A program made the position numbers and the translations under genes. DNA of 10,192 nucleotides, from UHGV virus genome UHGV-0119409; one strand, given 5' to 3'. Below the pieces are notes generated by a model, which worked only from the letters and a program-made list of their open reading frames with translations, was not told the DNA's origin and ran no database searches. Of this stretch, positions 1,452 through 3,701 are shown in pieces; position 1 is the first letter of the stretch, and the number at the start of each line of letters is the position of its first letter. The stretch is from a virus.

Positions 1452-2228
1452 TTACTTGATAAATCCTGCCGCCTTTCCCCGCCTGTATTCCTCCATCAGC
1501 CACTGCGCCGGTGTTATTCCCCCAAGGGTGGCGGCGTTAGGCATGCACCCGAAACTTCGCCCTGGTGGATGGTAAACGTCTCTCCCTGTGTCCGGAGGTG
1601 TACTCATGGGCTCTGGCTTTGCCTGTATGCTGATCACCGGATCGGGTATCTGCTGTCCGGAAGCCACCTTTTTCGCCCAATCATCGAGCAGCCTGCGCGC
1701 GTGTTTCTCAACCTCACTCTCGCTAAGCTGGCGCTGATACATTGCACGACGGGTATCACATACGACCCAGTACATAACCGGATGCCGCCACGGGAATCTT
1801 TCGGGACCACCAGGATATAAACTTTTTTCCTTGCTGTACCGGTGAAACTCCGCCATCACATCGTCAATGGTGACGCCAAGAACCATCTTGCTGTCTTTGC
1901 ACCACTTGATGAATTGCCCTGGCGACGGCCAGAACGGAGATTCACTGGCGCGGGCGTGGCGCATACCAGCGTTAACCTGTTCCATTGTAGTGATCCCATT
2001 CTCCAGAAACGCAAGCATCCATTGCTTACGGAATTCATTAAGTTTGTTCTGCTCCCTTATGGTCGAAACGCTTGCAGGAAATGCAGCCTGTAACTGGACA
2101 AATAGTTCATTGAAAATTCTAGCAACCTGCTCCTTTTTGCCATTGCTGTCACGCCGCTCTTCATGCACAGCAACACCATGCTCACGTAAGCGATCGTACT
2201 CATTGAGAAGTTCTGGAGTTGATTTCAT
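1452..2228 (-). CDS. Replication protein P-like DnaB helicase loader (258 aa)
   Basis: Blocks ...AFPAS..., ...ENGITTMEQVNAGMR..., ...PSPGQF..., ...YPW... match what I recall of lambda P. ATG at 2228 with AAGGGG 6 nt upstream. Overlaps the end of the upstream O-like gene by 29 nt. Confidence 0.85.
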   Translation of the reverse strand: MKSTPELLNEYDRLREHGVAVHEERRDSNGKKEQVARIFNELFVQLQAAFPASVSTIREQNKLNEFRKQWMLAFLENGITTMEQVNAGMRHARASESPFWPSPGQFIKWCKDSKMVLGVTIDDVMAEFHRYSKEKSLYPGGPERFPWRHPVMYWVVCDTRRAMYQRQLSESEVEKHARRLLDDWAKKVASGQQIPDPVISIQAKPEPMSTPPDTGRDVYHPPGRSFGCMPNAATLGGITPAQWLMEEYRRGKAAGFIK

Positions 2229-3030
2229 CCCACACCCCTTCTATCCAGTCAGTGTTATTCCAGTCAAGCTCATCGCTTTTCCCGGCATTTTTTGATTTTC
2301 CCCTGATATGATTTACGTGCCTGGCGAATTTTTGTTCCCACTGAACCTGCGTGAACACTTTGCCCTCAGCCATCCAGTAATCCCGGAATGCAGCAAGTTC
2401 AGCAGGTGTAAATTCCGGTTCCGGCAGGGCCGTTCCCCACAGCGCAGCACGCCGCCGAAAATCTGGCGACGGTAGCCAGCCATCTGTCATCGGAAATTTC
2501 CCGATGGGTTCACTCAGGCCATCCAGAAATTCAGGTTCTGCCACCTGCAACGGCGTACTGTTCGCTTCACTGGTCGGAGCACCCTCGCGCACGTGCGCTA
2601 TGTGTGGGGTTTTATATATATCTTCCTCTTCCTCTTCCTCTGGTAACTCCTTTTGTAACGCTGTTGGCGTTACTTTTTGCGTTACTCGTTTTCGATGCTC
2701 TGCCACTCTTCTATTCGTAAGTGCACGTTTTTTCGATGATTCTCCATTATGTCGCTCAAAGTTTGGAAGAATTAGTTTGCCGTCATGATAAGCAAGCCAT
2801 CCGACGCTAATGAGGGCGTCAGCAAATCCTGTAATAAAAGCGAGTCTATCAAGCACTCCTTTTGTAACGCTGCCAGCGTTACCGTCTATTGTTTGCTGGT
2901 CAGCCCATGCCCATATACGAACCAGCTTTCCAAGAACAGCATCTGGATCAATACCCAGAATTTCTGCTATCTGAAAAATTTCAGGTTTATCAGGAGTGAT
3001 AACTTCAACCTTAATCCAGCTGCTTGCCAT
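2200..3030 (-). CDS. Replication initiator, O-like (276 aa from ATG at 3030; a GTG at 3048 is the alternative start)
   Basis: Sits directly upstream of and overlapping the P-like gene. ATG at 3030 has GAGGGG 6-7 nt upstream. The protein has an N-terminal domain, an acidic EEEEEED linker and a C-terminal domain, and the iteron-like DNA repeats sit in the linker-coding region as in lambda O. Confidence 0.65.
   Translation of the reverse strand: MASSWIKVEVITPDKPEIFQIAEILGIDPDAVLGKLVRIWAWADQQTIDGNAGSVTKGVLDRLAFITGFADALISVGWLAYHDGKLILPNFERHNGESSKKRALTNRRVAEHRKRVTQKVTPTALQKELPEEEEEEDIYKTPHIAHVREGAPTSEANSTPLQVAEPEFLDGLSEPIGKFPMTDGWLPSPDFRRRAALWGTALPEPEFTPAELAAFRDYWMAEGKVFTQVQWEQKFARHVNHIRGKSKNAGKSDELDWNNTDWIEGVWDEINSRTSQ
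2611..2685. other. Candidate origin of replication: AT-rich tract, (TCTTCC)3 and dyad half-sites at ~12-bp spacing
   Basis: ttatatata (2612-2620), then (tcttcc)x3 (2621-2638), then half-sites gtaacgc at 2655-2661 and gcgttac at 2667-2673 and 2679-2685 (12-bp spacing; partial gtaac at 2644). The 19-bp dyad gtaacgctgttggcgttac lies at 2655-2673. All inside the linker-coding part of the O-like gene. Confidence 0.5.
2857..2882. repeat. Second copy of the 17-bp repeat ctccttttgtaacgctg plus a 19-bp perfect dyad
   Basis: Exact 17-bp repeat of 2647-2663 followed by gtaacgctgccagcgttac (9-bp arms). It is read in a different codon phase from copy 1, so the conservation is at the DNA level. Confidence 0.5.
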
Positions 3031-3223
3031 AGGTTTCCCCTCTTGCACTCTTTAGTGCACAAGCAAATTCATTACGATGGCGGTTGGCGCTATTCATTGC
3101 ACATTCAACACATGTTCCGTTCAGAACATACCTTTCAGAGAGATGGCCGTGACGGCACCGCTTTCCTGTGAAATAGCGATTTAACCCGGCTTTTGCGGCC
3201 TCCATTCTGGTTACTATCTTCAA
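3011..3223 (-). CDS. Small Cys/His-containing protein, possible zinc-binding regulator (70 aa; TTG start at 3223 or ATG at 3205)
   Basis: ORF between the cro-like and O-like genes in operon orientation. Motif ...KRCRHGH...NGTCVEC... suggests a metal-binding knuckle. Start codon uncertain. Overlaps the O-like gene start by about 20 nt. Confidence 0.45.
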   Translation of the reverse strand: MKIVTRMEAAKAGLNRYFTGKRCRHGHLSERYVLNGTCVECAMNSANRHRNEFACALKSARGETYGKQLD

Positions 3224-3326
3224 TTTTTCCGCCCCTTTTTGTTATTGATATTGGCTATTTTGCACAATTGGAAAATTTGATCAACCAGATTTGGTTTTTT
3301 ATTACCTTTGAGGTACGAATAGATAT

Positions 3327-3350
3327 GAAAAGACCGCCGGGTGGCGGTCT
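3327..3350 (-). terminator. Intrinsic terminator downstream of the cro-like gene (tR1-like position)
   Basis: Minus strand reads AGACCGCC-ACCC-GGCGGTCT (8-bp GC-rich stem, 3331-3350) followed by TTTT (complement of 3327-3330). Confidence 0.5.
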
Positions 3351-3371
3351 ACAGAGGGTTGTAGCTGGATA

Positions 3372-3602
3372 TCATGAGTAGAAGAAGTATGCCAGTTCTG
3401 CTTTTGAGCGCAGCCATTGTCTTGTTTTACAGGCTTTAAAAAGCCCATTCATCAATACCTTACCTGGCATTTTGCGCTTGCCTGTTAAGTGAGTCTGGAT
3501 ATAGTGACTCGTCGTTCCGGCTTCCTGTGCGAAGGCTTCACGCTCATCCGGAGTAAGTGCAAGCCAGTGCTTTTTGAAATCGAAATGTCCGTTATCGCTC
3601 AT
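3372..3602 (-). CDS. Cro-like HTH DNA-binding regulator (76 aa)
   Basis: First gene of the leftward operon, divergent from the repressor. Segment ...FAQEAGTTSHYIQTHLTGKRK... has helix-turn-helix character resembling Cro/CII-type phage regulators. Weak SD. Confidence 0.55.
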   Translation of the reverse strand: MSDNGHFDFKKHWLALTPDEREAFAQEAGTTSHYIQTHLTGKRKMPGKVLMNGLFKACKTRQWLRSKAELAYFFYS

Positions 3603-3638
3603 AGCTATTGCCTGATATTTATTTCAGATAATAAATAT

Positions 3639-3701
3639 TCACCCATAAGGTAACAAAAATCAAGGATAGTTACCTATGAGGTGCATTTACCTGTTGGGTA
3701 A
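3639..3701. promoter_or_regulatory. Divergent immunity control region with a tripartite operator (OR-like)
   Basis: Perfect palindrome ttacctgttgggtaa (3687-3701), and degenerate copies ttacctatgaggtgc (3670-3684) and tcacccataaggtaa (3639-3653), between the divergent cro-like and repressor genes. Exact -35/-10 elements not resolved. Confidence 0.6.

Follow-up and report, generated by a model that had tools for sequence, protein, structure and literature searches.

Two copies of a short repeat lie inside the replication initiator gene (2200..3030, minus strand; 276 amino acids [aa]) of the virus genome UHGV-0119409, of which a stretch of 10,192 nucleotides (nt), here called the window, was analyzed. 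We consider it probable, at roughly 70%, that the two copies mark the two parts of a split (bipartite) replication origin carried within the phage's own initiator gene, because the sites are real, are constrained as DNA, co-vary with the N-terminal domain (N-domain) of the initiator and keep their layout across the initiator family.

An 18-base-pair (bp) exact repeat, ACTCCTTTTGTAACGCTG, occurs at 2646-2663 and 2855-2872, with a spacing of 209 bp. The original prediction, made from the sequence alone, had described a 17-bp exact repeat with copies 210 bp apart. The duplication is real and the 17-mer, CTCCTTTTGTAACGCTG, is present twice, first at 2647-2663, but its second copy lies at 2856-2872 rather than 2857-2873, and the exact match extends to 18 bp. 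A chance origin of the repeat is excluded: with up to three mismatches allowed, the expected number of 17-mer matches in the window is 0.01, and two copies were found in none of 200 shuffles. Copy 1 takes in the tail of a degenerate half-site, a spacer formed by a T-run, a single half-site and 2 nt from the spacer of the dyad; copy 2 matches it exactly over all 18 bp. Both copies lead into 19-bp dyads with the structure GTAACGC-N5-GCGTTAC, and the dyads had been placed correctly in the original prediction (GTAACGCTGTTGGCGTTAC, 2655-2673, with 7-bp arms; GTAACGCTGCCAGCGTTAC, 2864-2882, with 9-bp arms).

We counted six copies of the 7-mer half-site GTAACGC in the window, where 0.85 would be expected; no shuffle had as many, and five of the six copies are located in 2655-2685 and 2864-2882. 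The proximal iteron cluster (2643-2685) contains four half-sites at 12-bp spacing, namely GTAACTC (2643-2649), GTAACGC (2655-2661), GCGTTAC (2667-2673) and GCGTTAC (2679-2685), which form a nested palindrome centered on 2664. The first of these, with one mismatch, and the last had been overlooked in the original prediction, and both are in the 12-bp register. This cluster corresponds to gene nt +345 to +387, directly ahead of the acidic linker and the DnaT domain. The distal iteron dyad (2864-2882; GTAACGC-TGCCA-GCGTTAC) is a perfect palindrome occupying codons 50-56 (GNAGSVT), which are predicted to code for a loop of the N-domain in a moderate-confidence AF2 model. None of these repeat features is assigned to a strand.

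The two dyads are read in different codon phases, since 209 mod 3 = 2. As had been predicted, the distal dyad is translated as G|GT AAC GCT GGC AGC GTT ACA (GNAGSVT) and the proximal one as GTA ACG CCA ACA GCG TTA CAA (VTPTALQ). We collected 79 viral loci for comparison. Both dyads are kept relative to Enterobacter phage BUCT554, a Klebsiella prophage and Rac ydaU, while the surrounding DNA differs at about every third base. In every one of the 72 unique homologues with a MASSWIKVEVIT-type N-domain, the distal dyad is intact, at gene nt +148/+160, and the proximal cluster lies at +345 to +381. When the codons of 21 non-redundant homologues (<97% pairwise identity) were aligned, codons 50, 51, 54, 55 and 56 (GGT AAC ... 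AGC GTT ACA) had zero synonymous entropy, whereas 65 other codons for conserved residues had a mean codon entropy of 1.22 bits (Mann-Whitney p = 2e-4 against the distal half-site codons); the dyad spacer codons 52-53 varied. Codons 124-130 of the proximal site likewise used single codons. Zero or low synonymous variation was also found between the clusters, around TCGAAAAAACGTGCACTTAC (2728-2733; codons 100-101, AAA AAA, and codons 102-106), which may represent a bend caused by an A-tract, one more degenerate half-site or another DNA-level element.

Most members of the wider family read both clusters in one frame, as GNAxSVT and NAxxVT, whereas in the clade of the window the proximal dyad codes for VTPTALQ; the DNA motif evidently survives the change of frame. 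GGT and GTT, which are rare codons in such GC-rich genomes, are still used at the site in Pseudomonas, Xanthomonas and Ralstonia phages. The zero synonymous entropy at the half-site codons, the different frames between clades and the retention of GGT and GTT bear out the earlier claim that conservation is on the DNA and not on the protein. Clades with other iterons have quite different residues in the distal-site loop, which indicates that the site shapes the peptide and not the reverse.

The N-domain family extends, at 33-50% identity, to Pseudomonas, Xanthomonas, Ralstonia, Vibrio and Cobetia phages and to epsilon15. We retrieved twelve distant relatives and mapped their repeated 7-mers. In VW-6S, CP2, PAN70 and QkW1 the half-site is GGTAACG(C), distal at about +148 and proximal at about +345 to +391. 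Vibrio phage 1.211.A uses TGTCACA (distal +164 and +197; proximal +357 and +371), and Raharianne uses GTAGACG (distal +141 to +177; proximal +357 to +383). The half-site of epsilon15, BUCT711, phiPSA1 and RPZH6 is TGTCCGC (distal +54 to +100; proximal +333 to +389), in an identical four-half-site arrangement in both clusters. Relatives with a GTCACGC half-site also have the new half-site in both clusters. Two loci, L081 and L082, encode a more distant initiator, with the N-domain MATSWLRLWHDM... and an almost identical DnaT C-terminal domain (C-domain). Their iteron, TGTCACGAC, is a 10-bp direct repeat; about five copies make up each of two clusters, located at +127 to +190 and +398 to +468 (1627-1690 and 1898-1968 in L081, and likewise in L082) and followed by ACAGATAAAGA twice. 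The split layout evidently arises with another kind of repeat too.

A scan of one genome per bacterial species yielded 80 prophage loci, from Enterobacterales, Pseudomonas, Xanthomonadales, Burkholderiales, Akkermansia and other Verrucomicrobiota, Planctomycetota and others. The commonest 7-mer in the first 480 nt of the gene was present in both zones in 73 of 79 prophage loci, and at least twice per zone in 46. Rac ydaU has the same half-site at the same two positions, with a 12-nt insertion at +160 that adds a distal half-site. It has a third full dyad at -33 to -15, over the ribosome-binding region just before the start codon. Single half-sites were also observed at -60 or -120, within the upstream gene, in many other loci.

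In gene orientation, the order is proximal cluster, polypurine tract, AT-only 11-mer, C-run and 12-bp GC palindrome. The tract, polypurine on the gene strand and polypyrimidine on the other, adjoins the proximal cluster at 2621..2641 (minus strand; AGAGGAAGAGGAAGAGGAAGA; 21 nt, (GAGGAA)3GA, coding for EEEEEE) and is a candidate part of the unwinding element. It behaves like a microsatellite, with 2 to 6 GAGGAA units among otherwise near-identical relatives (L016, L019, L024-L026, L035-L038, L057 and L069-L072), and the poly-Glu linker lengthens or shortens with the number of units, giving proteins of 274 versus 276 aa, for example. In most relatives the tract is (AGAGA)n, usually coding for REEKRRE, followed by AT-rich DNA, and the proximal cluster adjoins a polypurine run in nearly all relatives mapped. 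The AT-only 11-mer (2610..2620; TATATATAAAA on the gene strand, the feature itself having no strand assignment) is a candidate DNA-unwinding element. Directly after it comes the C-run CCCCACACAT (2600-2609); the lowest local GC content, 0.375, was found at 2600-2639, and the pattern of an AT-rich stretch followed by a C-run was seen again in relatives. Beyond these lies a perfect 12-bp GC-rich palindrome (GCGCACGTGCGC; 2587..2598, no strand), which we tentatively assign to the origin. GC-rich palindromic runs are found at the equivalent place in some relatives, such as CGCGCGCGCG in epsilon15, and in ori-lambda, too, there is an inverted repeat on the right-hand side of the AT-rich region.

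From this arrangement we infer binding by the initiator, a site of unwinding and looping. Dimers of the N-domain would recognize the half-site GTAACGC. The proximal cluster, together with the polypurine/AT-rich stretch at 2610-2641, would form the origin core, where the duplex would be opened as at ori-lambda, and the P-like protein from the neighboring gene would deliver the host helicase to this core. The distal dyad, 209 bp away, would take a further dimer, and this dimer could join the proximal complex by looping or wrapping of the ~200 bp between them, so as to stabilize, activate or gate initiation. Once bound, a dimer might also impede transcription of the genes for initiator and loader and so provide feedback. 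A more demanding form of the split origin makes the distal cluster obligatory in a looped 'split O-some', in which dimers sit at clusters 200-300 bp apart and loop strain opens the polypurine/AT tract; we regard this form as possible but doubtful. If true, it would represent a distinct mode of origin firing in a large unnamed initiator family (~7,200 clusters) spread over many bacterial phyla, and a binding site would dictate residues (GNAxSVT) of a loop in its own binding protein.

Several points weigh against the split origin or against parts of it. In Xanthomonas phage SAC and Cobetia phage Carin1 the proximal cluster is clear but no distal cluster is recognizable, so the distal cluster is not indispensable and is probably auxiliary. 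The distances between the inner dyads (207, 207, 207, 209, 210, 216, 216, 219, 276, 279, 288 and 300 bp) share no common helical phase, which weakens the rigid-loop model and makes a rigid, phase-dependent loop unlikely. No DnaA box was found in the initiator gene, and the three elsewhere in the window are at chance level. When the codons of the window gene were shuffled synonymously with the protein kept, at least two half-sites appeared in 7.9% of trials; this single-genome shuffle is weak because the amino-acid motif largely fixes the DNA, and the case therefore rests on the comparison between genomes. In the same test the automatic choice of 7-mer missed L083 and L090, where inspection does show sites. 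Finally, no binding, replication or looping data for this initiator family were found in the searchable literature.

With regard to DnaA, a perfect box (TGTGGATAA) was observed in the right arm of some relatives, ~60-75 nt past the polypurine tract, and TTATCCGTA is found there in others (the relatives concerned are epsilon15, L030, L033, L036-L038 and L045). Dependence on host DnaA may differ between right-arm types.

The main alternative, which we judge unlikely, is that initiator binding at the distal dyad is purely autoregulatory: the dyad would be an intragenic operator or roadblock that restrains transcription of the initiator and loader genes and takes no part in firing the origin. Its position, 150 bp past the gene start, upstream of the core and on the path of rightward early transcription, would suit such a role, and the extra dyad of Rac, at a typical operator place, shows that such placements exist; SAC and Carin1, moreover, manage without the distal cluster. 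However, the distal cluster is built of several half-sites in the manner of the proximal one, down to the same four-half-site arrangement in the epsilon15 group. In addition, the distal cluster is positioned differently among sub-families (+54 or +148), yet always lies 200-300 bp from the core, which suggests an architectural role related to distance.

That the two clusters belong with the initiator was further indicated by module exchange. BUCT711 (TGTCCGC type) and L054/L002 (GTAACGC type) have virtually identical DNA beyond the end of the polypurine tract, and so do epsilon15 (TGTCCGC type) and L045 (GTAACGC type). Because the right arms are near-identical while the half-site type differs, the N-domain DNA, both clusters and the polypurine type have evidently been exchanged as a block against a common right arm and C-domain. 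The junction of the exchange is the polypurine tract, where the N-domain/iteron modules join different right arms. Under the classical lambdoid rule, origin specificity resides in the N-terminal part of O and loader specificity in its C-terminal part, and the block exchange mirrors this rule. The original prediction had read the second copy as a further binding site of one and the same factor; this is well supported by the comparison, in that both clusters change half-site together and swap with the N-domain as a unit.

The same exchange bears on a mixed group of explanations that we find quite improbable, in which the motif is read by another factor (a host protein or a Cro- or CII-like regulator), serves as a recombination hot spot for module exchange or merely repeats a peptide motif. 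The half-site GTAACGC is identical in prophages of very distant phyla, as a reader other than the initiator might explain, but the half-site switches with the N-domain type while the right arm and C-domain stay, and this speaks against reading of the motif by a host factor or by another phage protein; the motif matches no DnaA box and, compared by eye only, is unlike the IHF consensus. Module exchange does happen nearby, but at the polypurine tract and not at the dyads. Most family members have both clusters in one frame with NAxxVT-like peptides, but a peptide repeat was ruled out by the other frame (VTPTALQ) of the proximal dyad in the clade of the window. Least probable are RNA or single-strand hairpins, acting as mRNA stability or processing elements or as an antisense (plus-strand) terminator at 2655-2673 with TTTTT: both dyads fold better than shuffles (z -3.9 to -4.5) and are flagged on the plus strand by a terminator-like scan, with T5 after copy 1, but the copy 1 hairpin is weak, copy 2 has no T-run, no plus-strand promoter-like site lies upstream of either dyad, no Rfam 15 match was found at E up to 1 (2100-3700), the arms are invariant without compensatory changes while the spacer varies, and the extra direct-orientation half-sites at 11-13-bp spacing in relatives are left unexplained, so that this candidate was rejected.

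The split origin lies in a gene of recognizable architecture. The open reading frame (ORF) list starts the gene at GTG 3048, whereas the conserved start is ATG 3030, where MASSWIKVEVIT opens all homologues; from this ATG the gene overlaps the 3' end of the upstream cII-like ORF by 20 nt. The N-domain (aa 1 to ~134, coded by 2629-3030) is followed by the acidic low-complexity linker and by the DnaT-like C-domain (aa 179-249, coded by 2284-2496; Pfam PF17948, E = 1.6e-18), which also matches the PDB DnaT chains 6aep and 4ou6 (E about 1e-20). The full-length protein matches PHROG 2509, 'replication initiation protein' (residues 1-268, E = 9e-130). The N-domain matches no Pfam family at E up to 10, and a Pfam search gave no Rep family match for the initiator. 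The protein had been called O-like in the original prediction, which holds only for its role, as it is not detectably a member of the lambda O family. The N-domain model contains helices and a beta hairpin, with weak structural matches mostly to winged-helix domains; it is probably a winged-helix DNA binder. The N-domain family has 7,203 matching clusters (50% identity) at E <= 1e-3 and 4,876 at E <= 1e-10, with no Pfam model. In public annotation, proteins of this family are named 'primosomal protein I', 'DnaT-like' or 'hypothetical', from the C-domain alone.

The end of the initiator gene is overlapped by a gene for a lambda-P-like helicase loader (1452..2228, minus strand; Phage_lambda_P PF06992, E = 5e-56). 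Upstream are three small genes whose positions correspond to those of lambda cII, cro and cI; 'cI' and 'cro' have helix-turn-helix or repressor-family matches, and 'cII' (3011-3223) is named from its position alone. RecT/YqaJ recombination genes and an integrase are located farther along. Because of these genes around the replication genes, the window is recognized as the early region of a lambdoid prophage. Between the cro-like (3372-3602) and cII-like genes, at 3331-3350 (minus strand), we observed a strong terminator-like hairpin, AGACCGCCACCCGGCGGTCT, with a T-run; this is the position of lambda tR1. The replication genes are near-identical to those of phages vB_EcoP_ZX5 and HEMP4 and Stx phage TL-2011b, and the region is present on the chromosome in 237 of 5,426 complete E. 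coli genomes.

A split origin of this kind would provide a base-level origin candidate for a class of temperate phages and prophages that includes Stx phage TL-2011b, the epsilon15-like phages and Rac. A split origin co-evolving with its initiator would be a clean system for studying the joint change of initiator specificity and binding sites, and would appear to be a clear case of a DNA site constraining the sequence of the protein that reads it. Pairs of half-sites could be used to predict prophage origins and replication-incompatibility types straight from sequence. As natural 'distal-less' variants, SAC and Carin1 would be useful for addressing the function of the distal site.

The Rac prophage holds an active origin, oriJ (PMC3945230). 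In E. coli K-12, the Rac ydaU-ydaV genes encode a homologue of the present initiator, YdaU, with ~65% N-domain identity and the same polypurine tract, but the Rac loader is DnaC-like rather than P-like and there are extra half-sites. No base-level definition of oriJ was found in the searchable literature, and published 'oriJ' primers were traced to ydaV, ~650 bp from the dyads. Nor did the searchable literature, with older subscription literature outside reach, describe iterons or an origin of this initiator family.

Split iteron arrays are known in plasmids P1 (incC/incA), F and RK2, and SPP1 oriL lies inside gene 38. In the plasmids, one group of iterons is located beside the unwinding region and one apart, in or flanking the initiator gene; Rep_3-type monomers bind these iterons, which are direct repeats, and copy-number control by handcuffing is the main task of the second array. 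The present system resembles P1, F and RK2 in having putative initiator-binding repeats in two separated groups embedded in or flanking the initiator gene, and differs from them in its inverted half-sites or dyads and in belonging to a temperate phage.

The closest comparison is with ori-lambda, where iterons followed by an AT-rich tract lie in the middle of gene O (PMC7466680). Like it, the proposed origin sits within the initiator gene, where the putative DNA-binding N-domain meets the presumed loader-binding C-domain, has 19-bp dyad sites and is followed by a P-type loader gene; an AT-rich, strand-asymmetric stretch beside the iterons is a candidate unwinding region. In contrast, the initiator here has no lambda O match and its C-domain is DnaT-like. 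Where ori-lambda has one contiguous array of 4-6 iterons, the window has four half-sites (two dyad equivalents) and a separate dyad 209 bp off, and its AT-only stretch measures just 11 bp and comes after a polypurine microsatellite. In Stx phages with six iterons, the two extra iterons are bound weakly in vitro and are still needed for plasmid replication (PMC7466680), a suggestive parallel to the distal dyad. An iteron origin in the initiator gene, with an AT-rich tract and a P-type loader, is of the classical kind; what differs from it is the initiator family, the split arrangement of sites and the polypurine microsatellite at the junction.

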